From: a virus
Length of the DNA: 64,000 bases
Virus genome (UHGV): UHGV-0023958
Reading direction: 5' to 3' (one strand)
The position numbers were made by a program, and so were the translations under genes. The notes under the pieces were generated by a model. That model searched no databases and was not told the origin of the DNA. It saw only the letters and a list, made by a program, of their open reading frames with translations. Positions 9,876 to 42,098 of the stretch are shown here, one piece after another; the stretch's first letter is position 1; each line of letters starts with the position of its first letter.

Positions 9876-10202
9876 CATTTAAACCTCATATCCCGCTGGT
9901 GAAAAAGACGCTACGGTGCATCTGGTGTGATAACTGGCGGAACCGCCACTTTAAGTGATGGTACGAGTGTACCGATAACTATAACTACCGCCGAAGCATA
10001 ATTCGGCATAAACACTTTATCTCCCTTTCCCCCAATTTGAGAGGGGAGGAATAATAAATAAAATTTAGGTTTTATTATACAGCCCAGTTTTTGTTCGGTT
10101 TTCTGTAAAAAAATCGAACACCAATAAGTTTGGGTGTGGCGAGTGAGATACCTCCCGCCCGCCACAACTCAATATAAAAAATAAAAGAGGAGGCAAGAGA
10201 TT

Positions 10203-17200: not shown

Positions 17201-17210
17201 GGAGGGACGT

Positions 17211-18902
17211 ATGAATAAGACAGAACAAGCAAATGGCTTTTTAAATATAATACGCTCCATTATCAAAGAGGAACAAGATAAGCGCGACAGGGTTGAAATT
17301 TGTCAAATTGATAGCGTAAATGAAGATGGGACAGTAAATATAAAAATGCTTTCAGATTTTGAAACTGTTAGAATAATTCCAAATATTTCAAATCAATCGA
17401 TATATAGTTTTAAAAATGGAGATTTGGCTATTATTTATATGATTCAAAATCAATTATCGAACGCGTTTATAATTGCTAAATGCGGTCCGACAAATGAAAG
17501 TTTAAGAATATCTTCGTCGGATGGTGATACAACTGGCGGAGGCACTGTTATACAAAATATAACATATCAAAGCGGAACTACTAGCGGCGTAACATCTGTC
17601 AATGGTAAAACGGGCGAGGTTACTATTACTGCATAGGATCTTGGAGCAATTACTGAAATTCCAGATGTAACACAAATACAATCAACAGATATTTCTTCGC
17701 TAGTTTATGATACAACAAATGGTGCCGCTTTTGAAATAAATAACAGTATTATCTTTTCAGATGGAACAAAAAATAACCCACTTTTAAAATTCAATTTGCC
17801 CATTATCGGCATCAATGGTATTAGTATAGATAAATCTAATGGTAAAAATGTTCTGGAAATTTCAGGAAAAGATTTGCAAGATTTAATTAATTCTATATCC
17901 TTGACTAGTGGTACGAATAATGGAACTTTAAAATTAACCGTTGGTACAACTATTGTTGATAATATTAAAGTTACGGGTTTTGATAAAAAGCAAGACCAGC
18001 TTAGCGAGAGCCAATTAAATGCTGTTAATTCTGGAATAACTTCAGAAAAAGTAACCACTTATGATGAATACCAGTCTTAGATTAATTCTAAATACACAAA
18101 ACCCGATGGCGGTATTCCGAAGTCAGATTTGTCTTCGGATGTTCAAAGTTCTTTGGTGAAAGCCGATTCTGCCTTACAAACCCATCAGAAAATTACAACT
18201 GGTAGTGCGAACGGAACGATTGCCGTTGATGGGACTGATGTTTCTGTTAAAGGATTAGGTTCTCTTGCGTACAAAAATTCTTTGACAAAAACAGATGTTG
18301 GACTTGGAAACGTTGATAATACATCGGATGAAGCCAAACCAATTTCTACCGCAACACAAACAGCCTTAGATGGGAAAGTAAATACTACAACAACGGTAAA
18401 CGGTCACGCGTTATCTTCTAATGTTACTATTACACAATCGGATGTCGGTTTGGGTAATGTTATTAACGCAGGGCAAGATCCAACACCAACATCCGATTCT
18501 ATAAATTATGTTACTTCTGGTGGTGTTAAAAGTTATGTTGACAACGGGTTAAACAAAAAAGCGGATTTACTAGTTAATGAATCAACGGTTACTACTGTAT
18601 AGTCTGGCCGCTTGTATGAGTTTACTGATATTCACAATCCATTTAGTTTATCTATCAATATGGATACATTTAAAACATCTAATGATGTTTCGCAGATTTA
18701 TTTCACGGCAGCAGCTAATTTTGATGTTGTCCTTAATGTTTCTTCTGGTGTTAGAATAATCGGAGATGGTGTTAATGCGAGTACCAAAAAAATTTCTTGT
18801 GTTAAAGGCAATTCGTATTATTTTACTTTTGGTTATACAAAAAAAGGTGTTTCTATTGTAAGTAATATTGATGCAAATTGGAGTGAGATAGCAACGGTAT
18901 AA
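17211..18902 (+). CDS. Tail fibre protein with GLGNVDNTSD-type fibre repeats and three in-frame TAG codons.
   Basis: ORFs 17211-17636, 17796-18080, 18129-18602 and 18612-18902 are all in frame 0. Repeats TDVGLGNVDNTSDEAKPIS and SDVGLGNVINAGQ. RBS aaggaggg. Confidence 0.6.
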
Positions 18903-19004: not shown

Positions 19005-19033
19005 TTGACTTTGGGGTGATAATATGTTATAAT
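19005..19033 (+). promoter_or_regulatory. Sigma70-type consensus promoter: TTGACT, 17-bp spacer, TATAAT.
   Basis: Exact hexamers and spacer; upstream of dUTPase. Confidence 0.55.
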
Positions 19034-19098
19034 ATACTCCAAAGCCAAGGGTGAAAGTCTTTGGTTTAGAAAGTTTTAAGAAAAGAGGTCAGTTTTAT

Positions 19099-19575
19099 AT
19101 GAGAAGTTTTGAAGAAGTAAAACCAGAATTTAAGAAGTTTCCAAATGTAAAAACTCGTTTGCCAGAAAGAAGCGATGCAAAGTCGGCAGGTTACGATTTT
19201 TATAGTAAGGAAAATTATGTTATTAATCCGAAAGAATCGCACGTTTTTTGGACAGATGTGAAAGCACAAATGTACTTTGATAACGTGCTTAATATATACG
19301 CCCGTTCGGGACTTGGTTGTAAATACGGTGTAGTTCCCAAGAACTGTGTCGGAATTATTGATGCCTCCTATTACGGGAATGAAAAGAATGACGGCGGAAT
19401 CGGTGTTTGTCTCGAAAATAAAGGTGATGAGCCGTATTCCGTGAAAGTTGGCGATCGTATTGCACAGGGTGTTTTCACGAAGTATTATATTACCGATGAC
19501 GATAAATATGTTTATGGGAAGGAAAAAGATAATGGCAGAAAGGGTGGTTTCGGTTCTTCCGACGAGGTGAAATAA
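19099..19575 (+). CDS. dut: dUTP pyrophosphatase.
   Basis: Motifs AGYDF, RSGLG, GIIDASYYG, GDRIAQ and RKGGFGSS; RBS aagagg. Confidence 0.85.
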   Translation: MRSFEEVKPEFKKFPNVKTRLPERSDAKSAGYDFYSKENYVINPKESHVFWTDVKAQMYFDNVLNIYARSGLGCKYGVVPKNCVGIIDASYYGNEKNDGGIGVCLENKGDEPYSVKVGDRIAQGVFTKYYITDDDKYVYGKEKDNGRKGGFGSSDEVK

Positions 19576-19784
19576 TGAAAGTTGTTTTGTATACTGTGCA
19601 TTGTCCAAAATGTAAAATTTTAGAAAAGAAGTTAGAACAATCAAAAATCAAATATGATGTTTGTGAAGATTTGGATTTGATGTTGGCAAAGGGATTTCAA
19701 ACGGCTCCAGTTCTCGATGTTGACGGTAGAATTATGGAATTTAAGGAAGCCGTTCAATGGGTTAAAGAACAAATTGGGGGTTGA
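19575..19784 (+). CDS. nrdH: NrdH / glutaredoxin-like redoxin.
   Basis: CPKC active site in a 69-aa thioredoxin-fold-sized protein directly upstream of nrdD. Confidence 0.5.
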   Translation: MKVVLYTVHCPKCKILEKKLEQSKIKYDVCEDLDLMLAKGFQTAPVLDVDGRIMEFKEAVQWVKEQIGG

Positions 19785-21706
19785 TGCGTATGGAAATAAG
19801 TATTAAGCTTGATTCGGATTTCGAAGAACAAATTAAGTATTTAAAAAACAAATACGGAGATGAAATTACAAAAATCAATGGATTGTCAGATGGGCAATTA
19901 GATTATACTCACTTTATTGACAATTTTATTGATAGTGACAATGTTGCAAATGCCACAATTGATCCAAATGCAAATGCTGGCACTAAAGATGTCCGTGGTT
20001 TACTTGATGAAATGAATAAACCACATTCGAAATTGTTGAGTTTAAATAAAATATACTATGAGGTCAAGAAAAAATACGGAAAAGAATTAGCTAATAAATG
20101 GCTCGAAGATGAATGGTCTGGTGCTTTATATTTGCATGATGCCCCGTCATCATCTTTTTATTCTTATTGCTACGCTTATGAGTTACAGGGTTTGGCAGAA
20201 AAAGGTTTGTATTTTTTGCCAAAAAGTAACACCGAACCTCCGAAACATTTAACAACCTTTTTCGCTCATTTACGAGAATTTATTGTGTGGGTATCCAATA
20301 GAACCGCTGGTGCGTGTGCGCTTCCAAGCTTTTTCGTTTATTCCTGGTATTTTTGGAATAAAGATGTTCAATCTGGATATTATTTAAAAGATCCCGAATA
20401 TTATAGAAGACAGATGTTTCAGCAATTTATTTTTGAAGTAAATCAAATTCATACAAGAATTGTTCAAAGTGCTTATACGAATTTGATTATTATGGATAGA
20501 AATTATATTACTGAAATTTTTGGCGGAAGAGAATTTCCAGATGGAAGTTTAGTAATTGATCACGTTGAAGACATTATTGAACATCAAAAAGCGTTTATGG
20601 AAACCGAATGTGAAATTAGAAAACAGGTATTCCATACATTTCCAGTTTATACGTATTCCCTTCTTTATCAAAATGGAAAATTTGTAGATGAAGAATTTGC
20701 GCGTTGGTGTAATAAACAAAATCTCCAATGGTATGATAGTAATTTTTATGTTGGAGATAGCGTTACTAATCTTGCTTCGTGCTGTAGAATGTTAAACGAT
20801 TTGACAAAACAGAAACAATTCCAGTCAAGTATTGGCGGAAGTCTTGTTGAAATCGGCTCCGTCAAAGTAAGCACAATTAATCTTATGAGAATTGCCATTG
20901 AATCAAATGGTGATAAAGATAAGTTTATTGAAATTTTAACCGATAGGGTTAAAATGAATATGTTTGTTCTTGATAGAGTTCGTCATATTATTCAAAGGAA
21001 CATAGAAAAGGGGTTACTTCCAAATTATTCGTACGGTGTTATTAATTTGGAAAAACAAACCACGACTAATGGTTTAACTGCAATGTATGAAGCCATTGAA
21101 AAAATGGGAATGACAGAAACAGATGAATTTGGTTATGTAAAATATACCCAAGAAGGAATTGATTTTGCTAGTAAAATAATGGATACCGTAAATTATTTGC
21201 AAGATCATGCTGGTTTTGATTATAATGTTTCTCTCGAAATTATTCCAGCAGAATCTGCAAATGTGAAATTGTGTAAAAAAGATAATATTTTATATAATTT
21301 ACATGATAAATTTATTTATTCTAATCAATGGACGAGTTTAATGGCAAAATGTAGTATGAAAGAAAGAATTAAACTTTCGTCTCTTCTCGACAAAAAAGCT
21401 GGCGGTGGTCAAATACTTCACATTTCATTGGAGGGTGCAAGATTAACAGAAGAAGAGAGTTGGAATATGTTAAATTATATTGCTAAAAGTGGTGTAATTT
21501 ATTTTGCATTTAATCCAAAACTTTCCTTATGTGAAAAACAACATACTTTCTTTGGCGATGTTTGTCCTATTTGTGGAAGACCAAAGGTTGACGAAGCAAG
21601 TAGAATTGTTGGATATTTGGTTGCTACTTCTACGTATTCCAAAGATAGAAAAGAGGAATATGAGAATAGAAAATGGTATGCAATTGGCGATGACCAATAT
21701 TTATAA
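19784..21706 (+). CDS. nrdD: Anaerobic ribonucleoside-triphosphate reductase, class III.
   Basis: About 640 aa. C-terminal Zn ribbon CPICGRP and glycyl-radical-like SRIVGYL. Confidence 0.8.
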   Translation: MRMEISIKLDSDFEEQIKYLKNKYGDEITKINGLSDGQLDYTHFIDNFIDSDNVANATIDPNANAGTKDVRGLLDEMNKPHSKLLSLNKIYYEVKKKYGKELANKWLEDEWSGALYLHDAPSSSFYSYCYAYELQGLAEKGLYFLPKSNTEPPKHLTTFFAHLREFIVWVSNRTAGACALPSFFVYSWYFWNKDVQSGYYLKDPEYYRRQMFQQFIFEVNQIHTRIVQSAYTNLIIMDRNYITEIFGGREFPDGSLVIDHVEDIIEHQKAFMETECEIRKQVFHTFPVYTYSLLYQNGKFVDEEFARWCNKQNLQWYDSNFYVGDSVTNLASCCRMLNDLTKQKQFQSSIGGSLVEIGSVKVSTINLMRIAIESNGDKDKFIEILTDRVKMNMFVLDRVRHIIQRNIEKGLLPNYSYGVINLEKQTTTNGLTAMYEAIEKMGMTETDEFGYVKYTQEGIDFASKIMDTVNYLQDHAGFDYNVSLEIIPAESANVKLCKKDNILYNLHDKFIYSNQWTSLMAKCSMKERIKLSSLLDKKAGGGQILHISLEGARLTEEESWNMLNYIAKSGVIYFAFNPKLSLCEKQHTFFGDVCPICGRPKVDEASRIVGYLVATSTYSKDRKEEYENRKWYAIGDDQYL

Positions 21707-21711
21707 TAAAA

Positions 21712-22665
21712 ATGGACAACAGAAGATTATCAACTATTGAAAATGAAAGAGTAAAATTAGATTATAATATTGTTAAAAATAAAATGGTTGATTGCAAAAA
21801 TCAAAAAGATTTAGCAAAACAACTTGGTTGTGGTGTTAATAAATTAAGAGAATATTTGATTGAAAACGAATTATATGATGAATATTGTTCTATTCATAAT
21901 ATTCCAAATAAAGCAAGAAAAGAAATTGTTTGCTGTGTTTGTGGTGAAAAGAAATCTGTTTATTTATTGAACGAAAAACCATATTGTAAGAAACATTATA
22001 ATCAAATGTATCGATATGGCAAAATATATGAAAATACAATATATGATAAAAATGAATATATTTTTGAAGAAGATATTGTAAAAATCATATTAAAAGATAA
22101 ATATCAAAATTATAAAAGCGAATCAATCATAGACGTTTCCGATTATGAAAAGATTTGTAATTACAAGTGGTACGAATCTTATGGATATTGTGTAACGAAA
22201 AGTAATAATTGCGATGAAGGTATTGATATAGCAAATATTCTATTTGATAATTATGCAGATAGATTCGATCATCAAAATCATAACAAATTAGATAATCGTA
22301 GGTGCAATTTGCGACCAGTAACAGCACATCAAAATTCAATGAATATGGGCAAAAAATGCACGAATACTTCAGGAGTTACTGGTATACAAAGACAAAATAA
22401 AACAAGTGAAAAGTGGATTGCAACTATAGCTTATAACTATAAACCCATATGGCTTGGGGTTGATTATAGTTTCGACAGAATGGTAATCGAAAGATTAAAA
22501 GGGGAAGCAAAATATTTTAAAGAATTTTCTCCAAATTATAATTTAGAGAAAAAATTAATATGTTTAAATTATGTTTCCAGAGATGATAACTTGAATCATT
22601 ATATAGAAATGGATTTAAATGGAAATATTATAACAAATATTGTTGTTTCTAATGATTTAAAATGA
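21712..22665 (+). CDS. HNH homing endonuclease with an AP2 DNA-binding domain, inserted between nrdD and nrdG.
   Basis: HNH motif NRRCNLRPVTAHQNSMN and an AP2-like SGVTGIQRQNKTSEKWIATI; Cys-x2-Cys pairs. Confidence 0.6.
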   Translation: MDNRRLSTIENERVKLDYNIVKNKMVDCKNQKDLAKQLGCGVNKLREYLIENELYDEYCSIHNIPNKARKEIVCCVCGEKKSVYLLNEKPYCKKHYNQMYRYGKIYENTIYDKNEYIFEEDIVKIILKDKYQNYKSESIIDVSDYEKICNYKWYESYGYCVTKSNNCDEGIDIANILFDNYADRFDHQNHNKLDNRRCNLRPVTAHQNSMNMGKKCTNTSGVTGIQRQNKTSEKWIATIAYNYKPIWLGVDYSFDRMVIERLKGEAKYFKEFSPNYNLEKKLICLNYVSRDDNLNHYIEMDLNGNIITNIVVSNDLK

Positions 22666-23138
22666 AAATCAAACAATTAATATATGAAGATTTTGTCAAT
22701 TATAAAAAACCATCATTGTTCTTGGGAACTACCGCCTGTAGCTTTAAATGTGAGAAAGAGGCTAATTGCATTGGAATGTGTCAAAATTCAGATCTTGTTA
22801 AAAGCAAAACAATTGAAATTGATAATAAGATTCTAATCGATAGATATTTAAATAACGGTATTACGGAAGCCGTTGTTATTGGTGGATTAGAACCACTTGA
22901 TACATTTGAAGATACTTTGCAATTCATTAAAGACTTTAGAGAAAAATCGGATGACGATATTGTTATATATACAGGTTTTAATGAAGACGAAATTGAAGAT
23001 AAAATAGTTATTTTAAAAAAGTTTAAAAATATTATAGTGAAGTTCGGGCGCTATCGTCCGAACTTCCAAAAGCATTTTGATGAAGTGCTTGGAGTGGAAT
23101 TGGCTTCTCCAAATCAATATGCTAAGAGAATGAGTTAA
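22662..23138 (+). CDS. nrdG: Anaerobic RNR activating protein-like; the Cys cluster CSFKCEKEANCIGMC is atypical.
   Basis: Size and position downstream of nrdD; N-terminal Cys cluster. Confidence 0.4.
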   Translation: MKIKQLIYEDFVNYKKPSLFLGTTACSFKCEKEANCIGMCQNSDLVKSKTIEIDNKILIDRYLNNGITEAVVIGGLEPLDTFEDTLQFIKDFREKSDDDIVIYTGFNEDEIEDKIVILKKFKNIIVKFGRYRPNFQKHFDEVLGVELASPNQYAKRMS

Positions 23139-23159
23139 TTTTAAACAAGGAGGTTGTTT

Positions 23160-24365
23160 ATGGAAAACGTATTGATTGAATTTAAAAATAAAGCTAAAAA
23201 GCAAAACATTATTAAGGCAGGGTTGTGTTCTGTAGCAATCTCCTTGTTATTTAATATTCCGTTTTTGATAGCTTTTTGGATTATGGATTATAAATATAAA
23301 TTTATAATTTGCGCTGGAATTTTTATTGTCGGAATCTCCGTTTTGTTTCCAGTTTTATATTTCAAAAAGTTTAAATATACCGAAATTCAATTAGCAAAAA
23401 TAATTGACGATCTTGGTTTAGAAGAACGTGTTTTGACAATGATTGAATTAAAAGATAATAATTCTTTTATTGCAAAGAAGCAAAAAGAAGATACGTTGAA
23501 CGTCCTGAAAACCGTAGAGGCGAATGATTTAAAAGGAAAATATAAAAAACAATCATTTCTTTCGATATTTTCAACTGCATTGGCATCTTTGGTAATTGCT
23601 TTATCTTTAATGTTTCCAAATATTAGAGAAACTATTATCGCTCGCGGAGAACCAAAATATACAATTGAAGTGTCTGCAGAAGGTCTCGGTTTTGTGATTG
23701 ATTATTCTAAATATGAAAATCAATCTTTGATAAATGCCGTTTCTAAAAAACAAGAACAAGATGAAATCAATAAAATTAACAATAAAGAAATAGTTGAATT
23801 AAAACAATTCCCGACTGTATTTTCAAATAGAATTTCCGTAAATTATAGATGTTTCGAAGATATTGATGCAACTATGGTTTTAGACGGTGCCAACTTTGCA
23901 GATGTTTCTTATAGAATACAATCCGATGAAACACATATTTTAATGGCACTTCCTTATAAAGGATATGTGTTTGTTGGTTGGTCAGACGGTTGTGCTTCTC
24001 CGTTCAGAGAAATTGACAATTATTCCACCGACTTGATTGCATTGTTCGATGAAGTAAGTTCCGTAGGTGAAGACTTACCAGATAAACAAAAAGAACCGGG
24101 AGACAAAGATGGATCTGATGGTGGTGAGTCTGATGGAATTGGACCCGAAGGAAATGGAACCGGTAAAACAAACAATGATAATAGTTGGGGCGATGGAGCG
24201 AAAGGTTCGCCAGCAAATCAAGTAATTAACGGTGAAACTTATTATGGTGATATTTTTAATCAAAGCTATCAAGAGGCTGTTGAAAGAATAAAGAATGATA
24301 CAAATTTAACAGATGCACAAAAGAAAGCTATAACTGATTACTTTGAATCAATAAGAAAAAATTAA
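23160..24365 (+). CDS. Membrane protein with two or three N-terminal TM helices and a Gly/Asp-rich C-terminal region.
   Basis: RBS aaggagg then ATG 23160; hydrophobic segments. Confidence 0.4.
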   Translation: MENVLIEFKNKAKKQNIIKAGLCSVAISLLFNIPFLIAFWIMDYKYKFIICAGIFIVGISVLFPVLYFKKFKYTEIQLAKIIDDLGLEERVLTMIELKDNNSFIAKKQKEDTLNVLKTVEANDLKGKYKKQSFLSIFSTALASLVIALSLMFPNIRETIIARGEPKYTIEVSAEGLGFVIDYSKYENQSLINAVSKKQEQDEINKINNKEIVELKQFPTVFSNRISVNYRCFEDIDATMVLDGANFADVSYRIQSDETHILMALPYKGYVFVGWSDGCASPFREIDNYSTDLIALFDEVSSVGEDLPDKQKEPGDKDGSDGGESDGIGPEGNGTGKTNNDNSWGDGAKGSPANQVINGETYYGDIFNQSYQEAVERIKNDTNLTDAQKKAITDYFESIRKN

Positions 24366-24378
24366 AGGAGTATTATTT

Positions 24379-25188
24379 ATGATACCTAATAAAACAAAAG
24401 CATCTGAATATAGGGTGCGGACATTAGATAGAAATGATTTAAATGAGAAAGGAACGATTTATATTGGTTAGGGCGGTACTTCTACTATTGATAAAGTTGA
24501 AAATATTTCCAATGTAGCGGCAATTAGTAAGCCAGATGATGATTTAAACAAATCTGGTTATTATGCTTTAACGCTTGGAGGAAATGCAAATCAAGATGGA
24601 ATTTGGGGCAGATTTTTACATGAGGTAGATTGCCAAATAACACCAACTTTATTTCAATTAAACGAAGGAGCGCCATCTCTTCATAATCCTTATAAATATG
24701 TAATTCGCGGTGGGTATAAGTCGTTAAATATTAAAAAAAGTATATTTGATTCAACACTTACATATATAATGGATTATAATTCAAATTTATCATCTTTTTC
24801 TTCTGTTGATTAGAAAATATTTGCAAAATTATCTATGAGGGGATTTGTAGAATATGATACTCCGTTTGAAGTATATTCTTCTTTTGTTGCCTCTCAGAAG
24901 ACTGGAAGTTCTTGGGAGTTATATCCTTTGAATTTTTCACCGATTAATATTACAAAATTAAACGATAATTATATGCGAAATTTCCAAAGCATTGTTTTTT
25001 GTTCAAATGATACACCGTGGCAAGAAACTGCGGATGGTTTTCAATTAAACCTTCATGCAATCGGTATGGGAAATACATTAGAAGAGCAAAAATTATATTA
25101 TTAGAAAAATGGCACTGGTGAAATTCTAACTGCTAATCTATCAAATATTTCATAGATTAGAGTAACTCAAATGTCTATTATTTTTTAA
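24379..25188 (+). CDS. Hypothetical protein needing TAG decoding (four in-frame TAG codons), sitting inside the otherwise standard-code early region.
   Basis: RBS aaaggag then ATG 24379. Frame 1 is open through TAGs at 24469, 24811, 25102 and 25153 to TAA at 25186-25188, and contains track ORF 24835-25104. Confidence 0.5.
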
Positions 25189-25200
25189 AATAAATTTTAA

Positions 25201-25237
25201 GAGGAGTGTCAAAATTACTTGACATTCCTCTTTTTTT
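25201..25237 (+). terminator. Intrinsic terminator: 12-bp stem gaggagtgtcaa/ttgacattcctc, loop aattac, then TTTTTTT.
   Basis: Seen in the sequence; one G-U pair. Confidence 0.6.
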
Positions 25238-25247
25238 ATGGTAAAAT
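25219..25247 (+). promoter_or_regulatory. Promoter TTGACA-N17-TAAAAT whose -35 lies in the 3' arm of the preceding terminator.
   Basis: Hexamers and 17-bp spacer. Confidence 0.5.
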
Positions 25248-25277
25248 ATCTTTGTAATAAAACACAAGGAGAATGTT

Positions 25278-25541
25278 ATGACAACAAAGCCAGTAATCAA
25301 AGAAAACTTTATTGAATTTCTTAAAACTAATTATCCAGAATGTTTTGAAAGCGGAACACCGATAGTAGAAAACGCTTTAGAAGCTTTGATTATATTAAAA
25401 AAGAGAGAGTATACAAAACAATTTTGTGCGTCGCTTTCAAAAGATGTTATGCAAGTTAAAACGAATAAGAAATTCAAAGATCAGTTAAAAGATATTGAAT
25501 ATAAAATTCGTAAAAATCATATTGATTTAGGAGAGAATTAA
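25278..25541 (+). CDS. Hypothetical protein.
   Basis: RBS aaggag; ORF track. Confidence 0.4.
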   Translation: MTTKPVIKENFIEFLKTNYPECFESGTPIVENALEALIILKKREYTKQFCASLSKDVMQVKTNKKFKDQLKDIEYKIRKNHIDLGEN

Positions 25542-25864
25542 TGGAACAATTAAAAGAAAGACCTATATTTATAACCGCTAAACATGTTAAAAATACGTTG
25601 AATGGAAAGACTTACGGGGAGATTAGAGAGATTCTGGAAATCGATCCAGGAGAACATGAATTACTACCGAACGGAGAGAAAATTCCAGATGACGTAGTTT
25701 GTATTGTTAACAAATCTGAAGAATGGCCTTGCACTGGAGGTCTTGTAAACGTAGAAATTCGTTTCACCGTGGGAAACAAAGAATACGGGCAAATGCTTAT
25801 GGCCAAACTTGGGCGTGTAACCTGTAGATTCACCCGTCCGCCTTTGGAAGCTTTAGAAGGTTAA
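25541..25864 (+). CDS. Hypothetical protein.
   Basis: ORF track; ATGA overlap with the upstream gene. Confidence 0.4.
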   Translation: MEQLKERPIFITAKHVKNTLNGKTYGEIREILEIDPGEHELLPNGEKIPDDVVCIVNKSEEWPCTGGLVNVEIRFTVGNKEYGQMLMAKLGRVTCRFTRPPLEALEG

Positions 25865-25869
25865 AAATT

Positions 25870-26667
25870 ATGTCATTTCGTGAATTTTATAATGAAGATT
25901 GTTTTATAAATATGAAAGGGTTTAAAGATAAATCAATAAACCTTATTTTAACTTCTCCGTTTTATAATACGAATAAAAAAGCAGGGAAGAAAAATACGCT
26001 TGAAAACACAGAAATCAAAAAAGGAACATATTCTTATATTAGATATGACGAACACGTCGATAATATGACGGACGAAGAATATGAAGATTTTACAAAAAGA
26101 TTATTTAATGAATTTAATAGGATTGTTGTAAACAACGGTGTTGTTCTTTATAATCTTTCTTATAGCAACGATAATCCAGCAAATTTGTTTTCATTAGTTA
26201 ATATGATTTGCGAAGAAACGAATTGGATGATTGCCGATGTTATTGTTTGGAAAAAGAAAAGTGCTTTGCCGAATAATTGCTCTCCAAATCGCCTAACTCG
26301 TATCTTTGAGTTTATATTTGTTTTTTGCAGAAAAGGCGAAGAAAAAACTTTTTATGTAAATAAAAGGGTGATTTCATTACGCGCAACAGGGCAGAAATCG
26401 TATGAAAATATCTTTAATTTTGTCGAAGCGAAGAACAATGACGGTCCGTGTCCGTTGAATAAAGCGACGTATTCAACTGATTTGTGCAAACAGTTACTTC
26501 GAATTTATGCAAATCCAGAAGACAAAGATTTTGTTGTTTACGATCCTTTTATGGGAACAGGGACAACTTTGGTTGCATGCAAGGAAATGGATATAAATTG
26601 TTTTGGTTGTGAAATTTCTAAAAAACAATGCGAGTGGACGCAAAATCGCTTGACAAATCAAAACTAA
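25870..26667 (+). CDS. DNA methyltransferase, N6-adenine / N4-cytosine beta class.
   Basis: Motif IV TSPFY and motif I VYDPFMGTGTT. Confidence 0.65.
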   Translation: MSFREFYNEDCFINMKGFKDKSINLILTSPFYNTNKKAGKKNTLENTEIKKGTYSYIRYDEHVDNMTDEEYEDFTKRLFNEFNRIVVNNGVVLYNLSYSNDNPANLFSLVNMICEETNWMIADVIVWKKKSALPNNCSPNRLTRIFEFIFVFCRKGEEKTFYVNKRVISLRATGQKSYENIFNFVEAKNNDGPCPLNKATYSTDLCKQLLRIYANPEDKDFVVYDPFMGTGTTLVACKEMDINCFGCEISKKQCEWTQNRLTNQN

Positions 26668-26678
26668 TGTGATATAAT
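26650..26678 (+). promoter_or_regulatory. Promoter TTGACA-N17-TGnTATAAT overlapping the methyltransferase stop, upstream of the suppressor tRNA.
   Basis: Exact consensus. Confidence 0.5.
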
Positions 26679-26699
26679 ATATATGTTATAAACGCGTGA

Positions 26700-26719
26700 T
26701 GTCAAATCTAGATTTGACA
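26700..26719 (+). promoter_or_regulatory. 20-bp perfect palindrome tgtcaaatct/agatttgaca whose 3' half supplies a second TTGACA -35 just upstream of the tRNA.
   Basis: Seen in the sequence. Confidence 0.35.
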
Positions 26720-26748
26720 AAACGTGATTATATAAAATTACTGTACAG

Positions 26749-26823
26749 TGGGGAATAGCATAACGGTAGTGCGGTGCTCTCTAAAAGCACTCTGTGTCGG
26801 TTCGAGCCCGACTTCCCCCGCCA
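26749..26823 (+). tRNA. Amber suppressor tRNA, anticodon CUA, with Gln-like features U1, G10 and G73.
   Basis: Cloverleaf: acceptor tggggaa/ttccccc; D-stem gcat/gtgc; anticodon stem gtgct/agcac with loop cTCTAaa; T-arm gtcgg-ttcgagc-ccgac; encoded CCA. Confidence 0.75.
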
Positions 26824-26856
26824 GTAACGATTAAAAATAAAATGGAGGTAATGCTT

Positions 26857-27231
26857 ATGTCGTAGATACGTGAATCTTGTTATTTTTATACTTAGAAGGC
26901 AGCATCTTATGTCGGGAGTAGAGATTATGAAATCAAATACGATCCCGGCGTTTTCGTTGTATTTTCTGAAGATTTTTATCCCTTGGACGATGACAAATAC
27001 CAATCGTGTTTATGCAGGAGTTTGAATTTGGCGAACGAATATAACACAAATGTTTCTTATTCAGACAAGGAAGATTTGGCCAAAGCAATTTATTTCGATT
27101 TATATCAGAAACCAGATGAAACCATTTTTGTCTGCGAAAATGATGCAATTGCCGATGTGGCAAACAGGTATTTTGGCGAAGATAGTATTATAAACATTAA
27201 AAAGGTAATTGAGGAATTTGAAGAAAAATGA
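26857..27231 (+). CDS. Small protein whose only in-frame ATG is followed by TAG at codons 3 and 13; lies immediately downstream of the suppressor tRNA.
   Basis: GGAGG RBS 9 nt upstream of ATG 26857; same frame as track ORF 26983-27231. Confidence 0.45.
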
Positions 27232-27701
27232 ACAGAGAGTTTGTGAGAAATTTTAACAGAATCAATAAGAGCAATTATTCCAAACAAGATATTCAAACGA
27301 TGATTGCACTGACGAATATTATGCAGGGTAAATTGTCGAAAGATATGGAACTCGGTTTTCCGAGTTTAAAACATTATGATAATCCAGAGTTATTTCCGAA
27401 TGGAATGTTGGTCAAATTGAATTATGAAAAAATTAAACAACGGAATCAAAATGATTTGACAGAAGATTATAAAAAGTTTGTTGAAGAAAACAAAGATAAT
27501 GAATTTCATCTAATCAGAGATGACGAAGATACGGGGTTAGTTGCACTAGAAGAAGATAAAAGAAAAACCGTTCTCGATGGAAAAGAAGTTGATTGTCCAA
27601 AGTTCTTATTCGATATGCTTTCAGATTTGCTTGTAAAAGATAAAAATAATGATTGGGTACCAGCGTACGAGTTTGAAGGAAAATTTTTAGAAAAAAAATA
27701 A
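27228..27701 (+). CDS. Hypothetical protein.
   Basis: ORF track; ATGA overlap. Confidence 0.4.
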   Translation: MNREFVRNFNRINKSNYSKQDIQTMIALTNIMQGKLSKDMELGFPSLKHYDNPELFPNGMLVKLNYEKIKQRNQNDLTEDYKKFVEENKDNEFHLIRDDEDTGLVALEEDKRKTVLDGKEVDCPKFLFDMLSDLLVKDKNNDWVPAYEFEGKFLEKK

Positions 27702-27720
27702 GAAAAGCGATTAAAAACAT

Positions 27721-27749
27721 TTGACAAAAAGATTTTAAAGTGATATAAT
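27721..27749 (+). promoter_or_regulatory. Promoter TTGACA-N17-TGaTATAAT.
   Basis: Consensus hexamers and spacer. Confidence 0.5.
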
Positions 27750-27800
27750 AAAGAAAAAATGCAATCCGAAAGATTGCAAGATTATAAGGAGAAGAAATTT

Positions 27801-28880
27801 ATGGCAATGAATTTTACCTTTGTAGGTAAACTGAAAGCAGTCAAAGACAATGAGAAGTTTAAAGGTTATGAAGTAAGAACTTTTGAATCTGGTTGGGTGC
27901 AGACGAATTTGAAATTTAATGCGGTGAATGGAAACAATCGCCACATGTTTCAGATTAAAGCTGGTTATTGGGGTGATAAGGACGGTAATGTCAATGAGAG
28001 CAAGACCGTAATTTACGCACCAGTAACAAACGAAGAAACACACAAGACAACGAGAACCAAAATTGCTTATGTGAACAGGGAAGATGAAAGTGTTTTGAAG
28101 TCCGTTAGCAAGGGTGGTAAATATGTTCTTGATCTTCGTACGGATGAAAACCCAGCTGGTTATAAGGAATATATTTTCGAGAAAGATTTTATCGATGATG
28201 TTAAGAAACACATTCTCGAAAACACAAGAGTGTCAGATGTGAGATTCAGAGTTCTCGGCGAGGTAGAAATCACTTATTCAGAGAGCAAAGGAAACTTTTA
28301 TAAGACATTTATTCCGAAGAAAATTTATCTTGCAAAGGACACCGAAGAAGATAAAATGCAGATCAACGCAAAGCTTATTTATGGAAGAACCAGCCTCGAA
28401 GATGTTGCGGGAACTGATAATTTTGTGCTGAACGCATACTCCAGATATTATGATAATTCTTATAGAGGCGATAATTGCAAAGGATATTGCTTCTGCCCTG
28501 TAGAAGTAAATATTGTTCCAAAGAATGAAAAGCAGAAAGATTTGTTCGTTAAGAGATTCCGTGAATTCGAAACCGATTCCAGCGAATACAGGGAAATCGG
28601 TATGGTTATTGATGTAATTGACGGACAGGAAATTGTGCGCGTTACAGAAGATATGCTCGGCGAAGAAGCGAAAGAAAATATTGAGTATGGTTTCTCGACT
28701 TTGGAAGAAGAGTTGAAGAAAGCTGGTGGAACGACTTATGGACCTCGTATTACAGAGTACAGATTCAATAACTGGGGTTCTCCGAGCGAAGACACTGTTT
28801 ATCAGGATGAAGATCTTCTTCCGCCACATCACGATGACGAAGAGAAATCTGATGACATTTTCGAAGACGATGAAATTTAA
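27801..28880 (+). CDS. Hypothetical protein with an acidic C-terminal tail (DDIFEDDEI); possibly an SSB-like partner-binding protein.
   Basis: RBS aaggag; acidic tail; position in the replication module. Confidence 0.35.
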   Translation: MAMNFTFVGKLKAVKDNEKFKGYEVRTFESGWVQTNLKFNAVNGNNRHMFQIKAGYWGDKDGNVNESKTVIYAPVTNEETHKTTRTKIAYVNREDESVLKSVSKGGKYVLDLRTDENPAGYKEYIFEKDFIDDVKKHILENTRVSDVRFRVLGEVEITYSESKGNFYKTFIPKKIYLAKDTEEDKMQINAKLIYGRTSLEDVAGTDNFVLNAYSRYYDNSYRGDNCKGYCFCPVEVNIVPKNEKQKDLFVKRFREFETDSSEYREIGMVIDVIDGQEIVRVTEDMLGEEAKENIEYGFSTLEEELKKAGGTTYGPRITEYRFNNWGSPSEDTVYQDEDLLPPHHDDEEKSDDIFEDDEI

Positions 28881-28896
28881 GTGGAGATAAAAAATA

Positions 28897-30066
28897 ATGG
28901 CATTTGTTAAACCCCAAATTAATACGATTAAAGCTGATATTGCAAATATTTCGATTTATCTTCGTTCGACGAAGAAATTCGGTAAAACCACACTTTTCAG
29001 AGATGTAATTCTCGAAAAGTATGGAGATCCATCTTACGGTCTTCTTGTTGGTTGCGGCGCAGAAGTTGGTTATAAACTTCTCGACAATTTGAACTGTGTT
29101 CAGGTTACGAGTTGGGAAGATTTGGTAGAACTTAAAAAGTGGCTTATCGAAACCAACGGCGTAGAACATCATATTAAAATTGTCGCGTTCGATACTGGCG
29201 ATGAACTTGTTTTGCTTGCAGATAAGAAAACGATTGCAATTAGCAATAAGGAAAACCCTCAGAAACCTTGCCGTTCAATTAAGGCGGCAATGGGTGGTTA
29301 TACCGCTGGCGAAAAGTATTCCGCGAACAATTTGATTAAGCCTTATCTTTCCGATTTGCAACAGCACGGTTTTGCAACGTGGGTAATTGCGCACACGAAG
29401 TTGAAGACGATTAAAGATAAAGGTGCGCTTGAAGAAGATGGATATCAGCAGCTGACTTCCAATCTTTCCGCTGATTATGAAGCTGCGTTCGGTGATGTAT
29501 TTGACGTATGTCTTACTGGCGTTATCGACAGAATGCTCGAAACAAAGCAGGTTGGCAATGATAAGAAGAATGTTGTTACCGATACGGAACGTAGACTTTA
29601 TTTCCGTGGAACTCCAATGATCGATGCTGGCGGTAGATTTGCAGCTGGTACGGTTCCCGAATATATGGTGTTCGACAAAGATAATATGGCAGCAGACTTT
29701 ATTAAGATTGTTGAAGGTGGTATGGAAAAGTCAAAACTTTCTGGTTTTAAAGTAAAGGCAAAAGTAGAAGACAAACCAGTTGTTGAGGCAAAACCAGTTG
29801 TTAAACCCGTTGTGAACACGGCGGCTGAAGTTGAAGAAGATGAACCGCCTTTTGATGCCGATAGTTCGGCGAGTGAAGATGAAGAAGTTTATTCGCTGCC
29901 AGAAAGACTTGCGGCGGTTCGCGAAGCGTTTAAAAATGCTGGTAAAGAATTGAAAGATCAAGTTAAGGCAATTCTTATCGCGAATGGCAACGGTCAGGAA
30001 AAAGCAAAACTTGATAATCTTCCTGTTGAAGAGCTTGCAAAAGTAGAGGCCATCCTTGGTCTGTAA
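28897..30066 (+). CDS. P-loop ATPase (FGKTT; Walker B IVAFDTGDE), possibly RecA/Sak4-family; acidic C-terminus.
   Basis: The motifs listed; function is inferred. Confidence 0.35.
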   Translation: MAFVKPQINTIKADIANISIYLRSTKKFGKTTLFRDVILEKYGDPSYGLLVGCGAEVGYKLLDNLNCVQVTSWEDLVELKKWLIETNGVEHHIKIVAFDTGDELVLLADKKTIAISNKENPQKPCRSIKAAMGGYTAGEKYSANNLIKPYLSDLQQHGFATWVIAHTKLKTIKDKGALEEDGYQQLTSNLSADYEAAFGDVFDVCLTGVIDRMLETKQVGNDKKNVVTDTERRLYFRGTPMIDAGGRFAAGTVPEYMVFDKDNMAADFIKIVEGGMEKSKLSGFKVKAKVEDKPVVEAKPVVKPVVNTAAEVEEDEPPFDADSSASEDEEVYSLPERLAAVREAFKNAGKELKDQVKAILIANGNGQEKAKLDNLPVEELAKVEAILGL

Positions 30067-30081
30067 TTAGAACAATTATAA

Positions 30082-30101
30082 GGGCGAGATTTTTCTCGCC
30101 C
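30082..30101 (+). other. GC-rich hairpin gggcgaga-tttt-tctcgccc with no 3' U-tract.
   Basis: Seen in the sequence. Confidence 0.25.
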
Positions 30102-30123
30102 TGTAATAAACATCGGAGAGAAT

Positions 30124-30660
30124 ATGGCACTTGGTTATTGTAAATGTGGTTGTGGGCAAATGTTGGAAACAACAACGAGTTATTCGATTAAATTACCCAC
30201 AAATAAGAAACTTTATTTTGTAAATGCGGATCATTATGGGAAATGGAAAGAAAACGCCGCAGTCGGAAAAACAAAAGTTAATGAAGAAGAGCTTTCTCCG
30301 ATTTATGATTTAGTTGCAGATATTATTGGCAAAAAATTAGATACTAAAACAATGTTATGGAAATATTATGTGCAATGGAAAAAAATTGCAGATAAGGACA
30401 CGTTGCTTTATTATCTTAAATCTGAAAAGTGGAATTTGCAGAAAATATTCCAAAAGAAAGACATTTATACTGCTTATGCGAGTTTGCAATATTTGAACGG
30501 AATTATCAATAATAATTTGCCGAATTATAAAGTAGAAGCAGAGGCACTCGCTCCCAAGCAAGATGATATGGATGTAAAAGAGAATAAGGGAAGTTATGCA
30601 GAAACTAATTCTAAACGCAAAAAATCACTTGCTGAATTGGAGGAAGAGGCTGAATGTTAA
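30124..30660 (+). CDS. Hypothetical protein with an N-terminal Cys cluster.
   Basis: ORF track. Confidence 0.4.
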   Translation: MALGYCKCGCGQMLETTTSYSIKLPTNKKLYFVNADHYGKWKENAAVGKTKVNEEELSPIYDLVADIIGKKLDTKTMLWKYYVQWKKIADKDTLLYYLKSEKWNLQKIFQKKDIYTAYASLQYLNGIINNNLPNYKVEAEALAPKQDDMDVKENKGSYAETNSKRKKSLAELEEEAEC

Positions 30661-32240
30661 ATAAAGAGCAGTTTGTTGTTGGTATTACAGAAAAATACCC
30701 AGAAGAGTTACTCGAAGGGCGAATGACGATTGAAGGGAATTACCTCGCGTGTTTGTTTTCTGATTTAACTTATTATGACGATATTAAACAATGCGTAACA
30801 GAAAATAATTTCATTACGCAGCAGGGTAGATTTTTGTTTTGCTTAATTCGCAGTTTACGTGAGAAAGGTTTCTCGGTAACGGACGAGGTAACGATTTTGT
30901 CTAACTGCGAAGAAACTGTTAAAGACCGCCTTGATGGAATGGGTGGCTTTAGAGCAATTCAGAAATTGATGAGTGTTGTTGATATTAAAAACTGGGATGC
31001 AATTGCAGATAAGTTCAACAAGAGTAATGTAATTTTAAAATTATACGACAACGGGTTCAATCTCTTTGAAAAGGTAACGCTCGATAAAGGCAAGGAAATA
31101 ACTCCGATTAAGTTGTTTAAGAACTTCGAGTGCCAAAACGTAATTGATTGGTACGAAGAAAGACTTTCCAAAATTTCCATTGATAATAATAATTCATCAA
31201 GTAAAATTACTGGAGAAGAGTATATTAGTTTTGATGACGATTTTGTAGCCGATTTAATGAAAGGTGAAGGCGCAGGAATTTCTTTCGGCGATGCTGGGAA
31301 AGATGTAAACGGCGATGATATTTATATGTACCCGTTTTTATCTAAAAATATTCTTGGTTTGGCAAGAGGAACAACAACGGCTTTGGCAAGCCATTCTGGC
31401 AATGGTAAAACAACGCTTATATTAAATATCGTATTTTCATTGATAGCACATGGACAAAGAGGAATTTTTGTTACAAATGAAATGACGATTAAAGATTTAA
31501 AAGTTATTATGCTTTTAATTATATTGACAAGATATTTTTGTTATTGGAAGATTAATAAGAAAAAGTTGAAGACAGGCGATCTTACAGACGAAGATAGAGA
31601 TATGATTAGAAAGGCAAATCAATACTGGAAAGAAAATATGGCAGACGCGTTAAAGATTGTTTCGATGTCTGACTCGGATGCGAATTTAAGTAATCAGCTT
31701 ATTCGAAAGGAAGCTTTAAGAAACGGGATTGATTTCTTTGTTGTTGATACTTTTAAATTAAGTTTGGGCGAAGGGAATACAAATGATAACTTTTGGATCA
31801 ATCTTATTAAAGACGCTCGCGCTTTGGACTCGATTGCGAAGAAACAAAATATGATTGGCCTTTATACGATTCAGTTGACAGCTACGAGTATCGGAGATTT
31901 GTTTTTGACAGAAAGTGCTTTGAGTAATTCAAAGCAGATAAAGGAAGTTCTTTCGAATTTGATTATTATGAGAAAGATGTACCCCGAAGAGTTTGAGCCT
32001 GGAAGTCCTTACGATTGCAAACCGTTCCGCTCGCAGTTGCAAGAGGACGGAACTTGGAAGGAAGAGGATTTTGTTCCAGAAGAAGATAAAACTTATCGCT
32101 GCGTGCTCCTTAATAAAACGAGAAGCGGAGCTGACAGTTCTGATACTGGCGTTGGTTATATTTTTAAATATGACGGGGACCATGCAAAGTTTTCTGAAAC
32201 TTGTAAATGCAGACCGAAACACAAGCGTATTGGGCAATAA
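30654..32240 (+). CDS. DnaB-like replicative helicase.
   Basis: Walker A SGNGKTT inside a RecA-like C-terminal domain; about 528 aa. Confidence 0.55.
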   Translation: MLNKEQFVVGITEKYPEELLEGRMTIEGNYLACLFSDLTYYDDIKQCVTENNFITQQGRFLFCLIRSLREKGFSVTDEVTILSNCEETVKDRLDGMGGFRAIQKLMSVVDIKNWDAIADKFNKSNVILKLYDNGFNLFEKVTLDKGKEITPIKLFKNFECQNVIDWYEERLSKISIDNNNSSSKITGEEYISFDDDFVADLMKGEGAGISFGDAGKDVNGDDIYMYPFLSKNILGLARGTTTALASHSGNGKTTLILNIVFSLIAHGQRGIFVTNEMTIKDLKVIMLLIILTRYFCYWKINKKKLKTGDLTDEDRDMIRKANQYWKENMADALKIVSMSDSDANLSNQLIRKEALRNGIDFFVVDTFKLSLGEGNTNDNFWINLIKDARALDSIAKKQNMIGLYTIQLTATSIGDLFLTESALSNSKQIKEVLSNLIIMRKMYPEEFEPGSPYDCKPFRSQLQEDGTWKEEDFVPEEDKTYRCVLLNKTRSGADSSDTGVGYIFKYDGDHAKFSETCKCRPKHKRIGQ

Positions 32241-32281
32241 AAAAATGTAAATAAAATCGGTCTTTTATACCGCAAAATTAG

Positions 32282-32310
32282 TTGACAAATAACTAGTTTT
32301 GTGGTATAAT
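32282..32310 (+). promoter_or_regulatory. Promoter TTGACA-N17-TGgTATAAT.
   Basis: Consensus. Confidence 0.5.
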
Positions 32311-32339
32311 TTTCATATAAAGAATAAAAGGACAAAAAT

Positions 32340-33353
32340 ATGCTTTCGGATCTCAAAGAAATGTTGATGGAACAACCGAATAAATTGGTCGAACTTCTTG
32401 AAAAATATGACTACGCAAAATTCAAAGTCAATTCAAAGGAAGTTCGTTTTGCGCGCTCTGATGATTCGGAGAGCGGTTTAAATATTTCGATTCATCTCAA
32501 CAATAACCCGAATATTTTTGTAACTGATTATGTTTATAAATTCAATGGTGATGTTATAGCTTACATTATGAAAAATCGCGAAGTCGATTTTCGCACCGTA
32601 CTATCGTCAATCAAATCAGTTTTGGGATTAGGCGAAGATTGGCAGCCGAAAGAAAAGCAAACTTTGTTTGGAGGGTTTTATGATCGTATCGGAGAAGATA
32701 AATCTCCAGAGATTAAAACTTACGATGAATCTGTTCTCAATGATTATATAAATGTTACAAATCTACTTTGGATAAAAGATGGCATTGATATAAACACACA
32801 AAGAAAATATGATGTCCGTTTTGATATAGATGATAATCGAATTGTGTTTCCTTGGCGCGATGCAAACACGGGAAGAATAATGGCAATCAAAGGACGATAT
32901 AACGGAACTCCGCCAGAAGGTGTTCCAAAGTATATATATCCGCTGCCTGGAAACGTAAGTTTGTCTTTGTTCAACTACGCAGAGAATTATGAAAGCATAA
33001 ACGGTTGCGATAGATTGTTTATCTTTGAAAGCGAAAAATCGTGTATGCTCGCAGACAAATACGGTTACGGTTCTTCTGTCGCACTTGGTTCGCATAACCT
33101 TTCAACACAACAAGCGAAATTGATTATTCAGGCGAACCCGAAAGAAATTGTTTTTCTTCTTGACAAAGATTTAGAAATAGAAGAAACGATGAATGATATT
33201 GAAACGTTAAAAGATTATGCGGTAATGCAAACTTTAAATATTAAATATTGGAATTGGAAGAAAAATAAAACGATACCGCCAAAGGGTGCACCGATAGATT
33301 GTGGTAAAGCAATTTTTGAAAAAGTTTTAGAGAATGAATTAGAGGAAGTATAA
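32340..33353 (+). CDS. DNA primase, TOPRIM domain.
   Basis: IFESEKS ... LLDKDLE pattern (E...DxD). Confidence 0.55.
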   Translation: MLSDLKEMLMEQPNKLVELLEKYDYAKFKVNSKEVRFARSDDSESGLNISIHLNNNPNIFVTDYVYKFNGDVIAYIMKNREVDFRTVLSSIKSVLGLGEDWQPKEKQTLFGGFYDRIGEDKSPEIKTYDESVLNDYINVTNLLWIKDGIDINTQRKYDVRFDIDDNRIVFPWRDANTGRIMAIKGRYNGTPPEGVPKYIYPLPGNVSLSLFNYAENYESINGCDRLFIFESEKSCMLADKYGYGSSVALGSHNLSTQQAKLIIQANPKEIVFLLDKDLEIEETMNDIETLKDYAVMQTLNIKYWNWKKNKTIPPKGAPIDCGKAIFEKVLENELEEV

Positions 33354-37523: not shown

Positions 37524-37535
37524 ATAGAGGTGTAT

Positions 37536-38534: not shown

Positions 38535-38562
38535 ATTTTATGCAATTTGAGAGGAAAATTAT

Positions 38563-38718
38563 ATGGATAATTATGAATTTGTTGAAGAAATTAAAAGAAT
38601 TTTAAAGATTGATCGCGAACTTGATTTTGTTGAAATTTTTGATCTCGGCACACTTTATGAAAAAGTGTGGGGCGTTGGATATGATGATGGGATAGAAGAA
38701 AGATATACAGCAAAATAA
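38563..38718 (+). CDS. Small hypothetical protein of 51 aa.
   Basis: RBS gagagg then ATG; not in the ORF track. Confidence 0.25.
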   Translation: MDNYEFVEEIKRILKIDRELDFVEIFDLGTLYEKVWGVGYDDGIEERYTAK

Positions 38719-38724
38719 TTTCAA

Positions 38725-38771
38725 AATTCCAGTCAAAATTACTTGACTGGAATTATTATTTGTGGTATAAT
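38725..38771 (+). promoter_or_regulatory. 12-bp perfect hairpin aattccagtcaa / ttgactggaatt with loop aattac. Its 3' arm carries the TTGACT -35 of a TTGACT-N17-TATAAT promoter.
   Basis: Seen in the sequence. Confidence 0.5.
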
Positions 38772-38801
38772 ATATCTATCTAAAAGTAAGAGGTGGGTTT
38801 T

Positions 38802-42092: not shown

Positions 42093-42098
42093 AATTAG

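Follow-up and report, generated by a model that had tools for sequence, protein, structure and literature searches.

A stretch of 64,000 nucleotides from the virus genome UHGV-0023958 (the window) was found to carry six composite elements, in each of which a terminator-like RNA hairpin is fused to a strong sigma-70-type promoter. The phage DNA was obtained from metagenomes and represents an uncultured lineage, the clade of which is known from metagenomes only. Comparison of the sequences with those of relatives makes it likely that, at these elements, the intrinsic terminators of upstream transcription units overlap the sigma-A-type promoters of the next units. A first-pass annotation, made from the sequence alone, had listed six sites of this kind. 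Five of them were retained (25199-25247, 38725-38771, 53745-53795, 57210-57259, and 60664-60712), but the one at 26700 was removed from the set, as it has neither a T-tract nor a -10 element. One further fusion at 32265-32310 brings the number back to six; it had been omitted from that annotation, as had seven hairpin-free promoters of the same consensus and the fact that the AAAAT of the "loop" is itself a promoter element. The architecture is not new but matches the promoter-early stem-loops (PeSLs) of T4-type phages, where the -35 element may be covered by the stem-loop.

The five retained fusions, numbered 1 and 3 to 6, share one anatomy (Table 1). Each consists of a 5' arm, an A-rich loop of 4-8 nucleotides (nt), a 3' arm and a T-rich stretch. 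The 5' arm contains GTCAA at four sites, whereas fusion 6 has GTCAG at 60672, so that the core assumed for all sites is not invariant. The 3' arm begins at TTGAC[A/T] or 1-3 nt before it. As had been proposed, the -35 TTGAC lies inside this arm at all five sites, and TATAAT comes after a spacer of exactly 17 nt, with the correction that the hexamer is TAAAAT at site 1; the arrangement is absent at 26700. The stems, first given as 8-12 base pairs with loops of 4-7 nt, comprise 11-14 pairs, and one G·U pair is present in three of the five. In the fusion at 32265, the 3' arm is formed by TGGTATAAT, the end of which is TGGTATAA, and the tail reads TTTTCAT.

The promoters of the fusions belong to a larger family. 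The pattern TTGACW-N17-TAWAAT has 14 matches in the window against 0.2 expected, all but one on the + strand. The 13 + strand promoters without exception have the 17-nt spacer, most of them have a TGn extended -10, and common to all are A/T tracts followed by AAAAT-N3 directly 5' of the -35 (consensus over the 13: aAAAAatTtt.aaaaa..a.ttAAAATta.TTGAC). Because the AAAAT is present at promoters with or without a hairpin, the "loop" is a conserved promoter element. A Shine-Dalgarno sequence and a start codon are located 28-52 nt past the -10 in this set, and 30-37 nt past it at the fusions. The 70-nt regions ending before the -10 were folded and compared with 200 dinucleotide shuffles each, which revealed a significant hairpin at six of the 13 promoters (z = -2.4 to -7.1). 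At the five fusions with promoters 25219, 38743, 53767, 57231, and 60684, only 0-5 of the 200 shuffles folded as well, in agreement with the hairpins expected there from the first-pass annotation (z-scores in Table 1). At the five fusions whose -35 is in the 3' arm, 8-13 of the 17 spacer positions are T, versus 4-11 at the seven hairpin-free promoters (Mann-Whitney p = 0.011).

A terminator scan that required at least five pairs, at least three G-C pairs and at least five T in eight nt recovered all six fusions, the weakest being site 3 and 32265. A permissive scan of the whole window returned many doubtful long-range closures inside genes, and only compact hairpins were used. Seven compact + strand terminator-like hairpins are present in the region from 19 to 64 kilobases (kb), and six of the seven coincide with strong promoters. 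The upstream stop codon is located 6-14 nt before the hairpin at four fusions, 24 nt before it at 32265 and 94 nt before it at site 1. From stop to start codon, four fusions span 88-99 nt, site 3 spans 83 nt and site 1 spans 173 nt, compared with 67-99 nt at the hairpin-free promoters.

Relatives of the phage, graded by the identity of their helicase, were used to trace the hairpins: close relatives at ~94% (L001-L010 and L087-L102), L011 at 73%, L013 at 64%, a group at 49-52% (L015-L021 and L063), and the rest at 42% or less. When the site 1 and site 3 families are aligned, 96% of the cells are paired, against 35-54% with slid partners; both sides have changed in nine of the 14 pairs, and the observed values were reached by none of 500 shuffles. 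The site 3 orthologue in L011 (L011:9945) has AATTCCAGTTAA, in which a C-to-U change gives a U·G pair, and that in L013 (L013:4023) has a wholly different stem of 19 pairs, AAATTTGGGTTTTGGTTAA / TTGACTAAAACCCAAATTT, with two wobbles at the same promoter. At site 5, the 5' arms of the orthologues are AAGAAAGTTGACTAA (L088:4660) and AAAGAAAGTTAGCTAA (L089:4940), both of which pair with TTAGTTGACTTTCTT through two G·U pairs each; the GTCAA is gone and the RNA pairing is retained. The counterparts of GTCAA are GTTAA in L011, GGTTAA in L013, GTTGAC in L088, GTTAGC in L089, and ATCAA in L095. For counting stem mismatches, the arms were aligned by an ungapped inverted-repeat score in which all mismatches are equal and wobbles are not preferred. 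This score replaced an earlier RNAfold classifier (at least four of the five TTGAC bases paired) that missed the loop and 5'-arm geometry and had a noisy control. About 15 independent G·T/T·G events were found versus two A·C/C·A events (hand count; binomial p = 0.001), and + strand RNA was more stable than - strand RNA in 14 of 15 hairpins. Taken from sequence comparison, these observations point to a + strand RNA hairpin as the selected object, and not to an operator, a cruciform or a DNA palindrome.

Among the other explanations considered, the GTCAA-N-TTGAC repeat could be a DNA operator at which a dimeric repressor or a TTGAC-binding factor switches the early promoters off or on. The repeat does cover the -35 hexamer, a frequent repressor target, and several sites have the same core, but conserved half-sites at fixed spacing are absent (GTCAA and TTGAC are 6, 6, 14, 13, and 10 nt apart), and GTCAA was lost in L011, L013, L088, L089, and L095 with retention of the RNA pairing. 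The arms outside the core differ between the sites, as had been noted in the first-pass annotation, and they co-vary with their partners; moreover, the mismatches are mostly G·T, which is as harmful to a DNA palindrome as A·C. The repeats could instead act as a DNA cruciform or single-stranded hairpin that is extruded by supercoiling and tunes or creates the promoter, as for the phage N4 virion RNA polymerase, an idea favored by their position within promoter DNA and by AT-rich flanks that would ease extrusion. A cruciform needs pairing on both strands, however, whereas G·T is tolerated here and A·C is not, and the + strand is consistently the more stable one; the promoters are already full sigma-70 consensus sequences with a 17-nt spacer, and seven equally good ones have no repeat. 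Owing to the covariation, the G·U wobbles, the + strand stability and the half-site spacing of 6-14 nt, the operator, doubted from the outset for want of a fixed spacing, is considered highly improbable, and the cruciform hardly deserves more credit.

Nor is it likely that the structures are non-terminating RNA hairpins which, as 3'-end protectors or processing sites on read-through transcripts, stabilize the upstream message once it has been cleaved. Terminator-like hairpins commonly block 3' exonucleases, and the weak U-tracts at site 3 and 32265 would suit such a role, but good T runs directly follow the stem in four of the six fusions, T-rich spacers are specific to the hairpin promoters, and strong termination in vivo was reported for a PeSL stem-loop of this design. 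The remaining explanation, that all the sites derive from a single promoter cassette, mobile or duplicated, and that their complementarity is a by-product without selected function, has in its favor the likeness of sites 4, 5, and 6 (AAAGTCAA...TTGACTTTT) and the enrichment of homology breakpoints near promoters (7/66 clusters versus 3% expected). It is nevertheless very unlikely, since the arms of sites 1, 3, and 32265 are unrelated, orthologues compensate for changes in the arms, and the cassette-like consensus is also present at hairpin-free promoters. The terminator-like RNA hairpin fused to a sigma-70-type promoter, which the first-pass annotation had proposed, is upheld by covariation, G·U wobbles and T-rich spacers.

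If the hairpins act as terminators, the polymerase from the upstream unit would transcribe the 5' arm, the A-rich loop and then the 3' arm, which is the -35 region of the next promoter, and the T-rich promoter spacer, transcribed last, would double as the U-tract. The nascent RNA would fold and transcription would stop within the spacer, some 25 to 15 nt before the predicted start site of the following promoter (-25 to -15), and a host sigma-A/sigma-70-type holoenzyme would start the next unit about 30 nt further on. The outcome, depending on the efficiencies of the predicted termination and initiation, would be a chain of insulated 3-6 kb units in the early and middle region of the phage, at no extra intergenic length. 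The predicted start sites are ~30 nt beyond the hairpin. Because transcription is predicted to begin downstream of the 5' arm, the promoter's own RNA cannot form the hairpin and only RNA from upstream can, which argues against the earlier suggestion that the fused promoter is modulated by a TTGAC-binding factor or by the hairpin.

Several points weigh against termination by RNA hairpins. The U-tract is poor at site 3 (ATTATTTG), the T run at 32265 has only four bases, and outer A-U pairs compete with the U-tract at sites 4-6, so that termination could be partial. Release also requires the elongating polymerase to extend over the -10 and +1 of the following promoter, and a collision with a promoter-bound polymerase is therefore not avoided. 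The covariation consists of a few arm-replacement events among paralogues and orthologues and does not come from many independent lineages, and a C-to-T mutation bias of the + strand, which has a positive GC skew, could add to the excess of G·U.

A more far-reaching proposal, which we regard as rather unlikely, is that the near-invariant -35 region (tagTTGACTTTTT) serves as a universal 3' half of terminators and that the polymerase re-initiates in place after release. After intrinsic termination, the polymerase was reported to be retained frequently on the DNA and to be able to re-initiate nearby, an effect expected to vary with how far the promoter is from the terminator (Kang et al., 2020, Nat Commun 11:450, PMC6978380). 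That work was done in vitro with E. coli polymerase and separate elements, whereas the distance is zero in the fusions described here; since recycling of the polymerase was demonstrated in vitro, a hand-off at zero distance is conceivable. The 5' arm of the site 5 orthologues in L088 and L089, which differs along with the upstream gene content while the 3' arm is unchanged, fits such half-terminators. If the proposal is true, any gene cassette with a short arm complementary to the -35 would be terminated wherever it is placed before such a promoter; these portable half-terminators would make cassettes exchangeable, and the hand-off points would recycle polymerase along the early units. The elements would in any case be natural, very compact parts of ~50 base pairs that end one unit and start the next, and convenient substrates for studying polymerase recycling at zero terminator-promoter distance. 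The pattern of wobbles and covariation also provides a simple rule by which the boundaries of transcription units may be marked in uncultured genomes of this kind.

The fusions in the window are one geometry of a clade-wide habit, as indicated by repeats of varying geometry in the relatives. Among unique strong promoters, an inverted repeat (score of at least 9) over the core promoter was found in 41% in the close clade (~94%), 78% in the 49-52% clade and 5% in the relatives at 42% or less, and the corresponding values for non-promoter TTGAC[AT] sites were 1.8, 0, and 1.1%. The usual form in the 49-52% clade is AAAAsCCC-TTGACAAnnn-GGGsTTTT-GTGnTATAAT, with the -35 in the loop or the 5' arm and with a G+C stem and a T run inside the spacer. 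The geometry has thus shifted within the clade, from a -35 in the 3' arm in close relatives to a -35 in the loop in the 49-52% relatives. In some distant relatives, an ordinary terminator ends just 5' of the -35.

PeSLs were described in T4-type phages as cassettes that extend from a stop codon to the next Shine-Dalgarno sequence, in which a stem-loop accompanies a strong promoter of the sigma-70 type and AT-rich DNA upstream of it (Arbiol et al., 2010, Genome Biol Evol 2:140, PMC2839356; Comeau et al., 2014, Genome Biol Evol 6:1611, PMC4122927). Their stem-loops were divided into subclasses located between -35 and -10, over the -35, over the -10, 5' of the -35, or 3' of the -10, and lacZ reporters revealed both terminator and promoter activity, one PeSL being comparable to rrnB T1 in termination (PMC2839356). 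The elements of the present phage resemble them in the sigma-70 consensus promoter, the AT-rich upstream region, the intergenic position, the stem-loop in or over the promoter, the G-T pairs in the stems, the many copies per genome, the frequent flanking by small genes of unknown function, and the proposed role of ending or attenuating transcription from upstream units. Five sites correspond to the subclass that overlaps the -35, the hairpin at 32265-32309 spans the -35 through the -10, and the relatives have the type between the boxes. All sequence-level features of PeSLs are found in these elements, which by analogy may have the same activity. The stems differ, being AT-rich and built from the -35 itself here but from polyG/polyC tracts in PeSLs. 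The phage is not of the T4 type, as it has a Pol III-alpha replicase, DnaB-like and RecD2-like helicases, and TAG-recoded late genes; T4-type phages have a family-B polymerase. No match among GenBank phages was found by megablast with the segment from 24 to 30 kb of the window. This result and the non-T4 replication module indicate a likeness of design and probable function, and not shared descent. Composite terminator/promoter elements would then not be confined to T4-type phages of Gram-negative hosts, and would also organize the early genes of an unrelated, stop-codon-recoded phage clade.

Two other systems bear comparison with the fusions. In the lysozyme gene e of T4, early read-through RNA hides the ribosome-binding site in a hairpin, and a promoter inside the hairpin gives translatable RNA. 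Gene e and the fusions are alike in that promoter DNA encodes an arm of an RNA structure that acts only on upstream transcripts, but the hairpins of the six fusions would end the upstream RNA and do not mask a ribosome-binding site. A gene e-like candidate is present at 49634-49683. One arm of this hairpin (-22 kcal/mol) is the extended -10 of promoter 49621 (CCATCTGTGGTATAAT), and the other comprises the ribosome-binding site and AUG (GAGGTATTACAGATGG) of the gene starting at 49680, so that the start site would be hidden in read-through RNA and exposed in promoter-started RNA; in close relatives it is kept with few mismatches and zero compensatory changes. Widespread promoter-terminator coupling was recently claimed in bacteria (bioRxiv 10.64898/2026.08.19.745784), with a physical link between the start and end sites of neighboring units, as proposed here for the phage. 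The preprint deals with bacteria, and by term count "phage" and "35 element" do not occur in it. In the literature search, promoter-terminator overlap was not mentioned in the SPP1 genome paper.

PeSLs were also proposed as recombination points for modular shuffling (PMC2839356, PMC4122927), at which flanked genes are inserted, deleted or replaced and mini-circles arise; this role is only partly supported for the present elements. In the comparison with close relatives, the seven promoter-near breakpoint clusters among the 66 lie within -60 to +45 of a strong promoter (p = 0.004 against the 3% expected), and most clusters lie elsewhere. Hairpin promoters account for six of the seven. In eight relatives the break falls at 25186-25195, immediately 5' of hairpin 1, and in L089 a break falls within the hairpin 5 loop. 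The sequence from ~24399 to ~25186 is replaced by unrelated sequence in eight of the 12 close relatives, as seen with L093-L102, with the right junction 4-13 nt before the 5' arm of hairpin 1. An exchange between two flanking elements was not found in this comparison of breakpoints.

Table 1. Positions of the fusions, their promoters and related features in the window (z, folding z-score)
Feature	Position	Strand	Structure	Context
Fusion 1	25199..25247	+	14 pairs, one G·U; loop AATTAC, then TTTTT; -21.4 kcal/mol, z -6.2	
Fusion 1, arms	5' arm 25199-25212; 3' arm 25219-25232	+	5' AAGAGGAGTGTCAA; 3' TTGACATTCCTCTT	
Fusion 1, promoter	-35 25219-25224; -10 25242-25247	+	TTGACA in 3' arm; spacer 17 nt; TGn and TAAAAT	Gene starts at 25278
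Fusion 32265	32265..32310	+	20-pair hairpin 32265-32309 around whole core promoter; -22.7 kcal/mol, z -7.1	
Fusion 32265, promoter	-35 32282-32287	+	TTGACA at apex and in loop	Follows DnaB-like helicase gene; predicted to drive gene at 32340
Fusion 3	38725..38771	+	Hairpin 38725-38754, 12 perfect pairs, loop AATTAC; z -4.4; weak U-tract tail ATTATTTG	
Fusion 3, promoter	-35 38743-38748; -10 ends 38771	+	TTGACT; spacer 17 nt; TGgTATAAT	RecD2-like helicase gene at 38802
Fusion 4	53745..53795	+	Hairpin 53745-53774, 11 pairs, one U·G, loop 8, then T8; z -2.4	
Fusion 4, promoter	-35 53767-53772; -10 53790-53795	+	TTGACT; spacer 17 nt; TATAAT	Upstream stop ends 53737; next start codon 53826
Fusion 5	57210..57259	+	Hairpin 57210-57238, 11 pairs, loop 7, T-rich tail; z -3.4	
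Fusion 5, promoter	-35 57231-57236; -10 57254-57259	+	TTGACT; spacer 17 nt; TATAAT	Upstream stop ends 57201; next start codon 57292
Fusion 6	60664..60712	+	Hairpin 60664-60693, 13 pairs, loop 4, then CTTCTTTTT; core GTCAG not GTCAA, hence one G·U; z -3.8	
Fusion 6, promoter	-35 60684-60689; -10 60707-60712	+	TTGACT; spacer 17 nt; TATAAT	Upstream stop ends 60649; next start codon 60749
Stand-alone compact terminator	48595..48614	+	TGGGGCATGGCAGTGCCCCA, then AATTTTCG	Sole compact one of early region without strong-promoter fusion
Leader hairpin, not a fusion	26693..26726	+	Interrupted 13 pairs; -14.2 kcal/mol, z -4.6	
Hairpin-free promoters	Starts 19005, 26650, 27721, 42099, 44801, 45500, 49621 (span 19005..49649)	+	TTGAC[AT]-N17-TATAAT with AAAAT-N3 upstream; z -1.2 to +1.6	

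The palindrome at site 26700 (TGTCAAATCT/AGATTTGACA) is genuine, but a T-tract is absent, the tail is U-poor and there is no -10 at 16-18 nt past its TTGACA, which rules out a second promoter at this TTGACA. The gene for a suppressor tRNA(CUA), at 26749-26823, has its own perfect consensus promoter at 26650-26678. As site 26700 lies between this promoter and the tRNA gene, it is in the 5' leader of that tRNA. The hairpin at 26693-26726 corresponds to about +8 to +41 of the transcript, 23 nt 5' of tRNA(CUA) and 26 nt past a methyltransferase stop codon. It is kept in 12 close relatives, and the outer stem in L094 has one compensatory change from C-G to U-A and one change from G·U to G-C. In our view it is a hairpin of the leader or of a 3' end that could be a weak attenuator at best, and it is outside the set of fusions. 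The open reading frame (ORF) at 24835..25104, upstream of fusion 1, ends at a TAG; if the TAG codons at 25102 and 25153 were translated, it would continue to 25188. With both read through, the gap from stop codon to hairpin at site 1 becomes 10 nt, matching the 6-14 nt of four other fusions. This ORF may represent a gene of the early region whose expression requires the suppressor tRNA.

Among the hairpin-free promoters, that at 45500 has no ribosome-binding site or start codon downstream; its apparent targets are five clustered tRNA genes (Tyr, Gln, Asn, Gly, and Val) at 46057-47627. The segment 45500-47627 is the most rearranged region among the close relatives.

All long genes of the window are on the + strand and there are no minus-strand genes. 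A divergent promoter from the reverse complement of TTGAC was considered and rejected, its best -10 having only nine of 12 matches and minus-strand genes being absent. The late structural genes (1-19 kb) are TAG-recoded, and the early region (19-64 kb), including the promoters, uses the standard code. The frame-2 ORF 2..7525 (2507 codons) contains 33 in-frame TAG codons and the tape-measure domain PF10145, and read-through of TAG is also needed for the ORFs 10185..14339, 14308..15927, and 17175..18902. The region from 19.7 to 42 kb encodes NrdD, an AAA_24 ATPase, a DnaB-like helicase, a LAGLIDADG endonuclease, a Pol III-alpha polymerase, a PD-(D/E)XK nuclease, and a RecD2-like helicase. The promoters and ribosome-binding sites appear Bacillota-like, and the probable host type differs from that of T4-type phages.

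Several candidate mobile elements were also observed. The LAGLIDADG endonuclease gene (33353-34456) lies next to the Pol III-alpha gene, with a gene of unknown function on its other side, and 33353-33365 is a recurrent homology breakpoint in eight relatives, as expected for a mobile homing endonuclease. The RecD2-like helicase gene (38802-42092) has an intein-like insert within the P-loop, at about residues 366-705 of the protein. The borders of the insert read G-x-A-G / C-V-D ... G-N / C-G-K-T, and the insert is kept across homologues, some of which have precomputed intein and LAGLIDADG Pfam matches at this position. At 58865-60329, a HEARO RNA (Rfam RF02033, 121.7 bits) is located directly 5' of a 409-amino-acid protein with RRXRR and HNH domains, a pairing that we take to be the IscB / omega-RNA arrangement. 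The element is wholly absent in L087 and L089, with an exact junction at 58864/60376. Its ORF (59100-60329) was tried as a synteny marker for diverged relatives of sites 4-6 and was discarded as a mobile RRXRR/HNH gene with more than 8000 database matches.

A conventional strong terminator-like hairpin (GGAGAGGTAAT TTCT ATTACCTCTCC, -16.4 kcal/mol, tail TTATTTAT) is present at 15989-16014, between two late genes in the recoded region, and has no sigma-70-type promoter attached.

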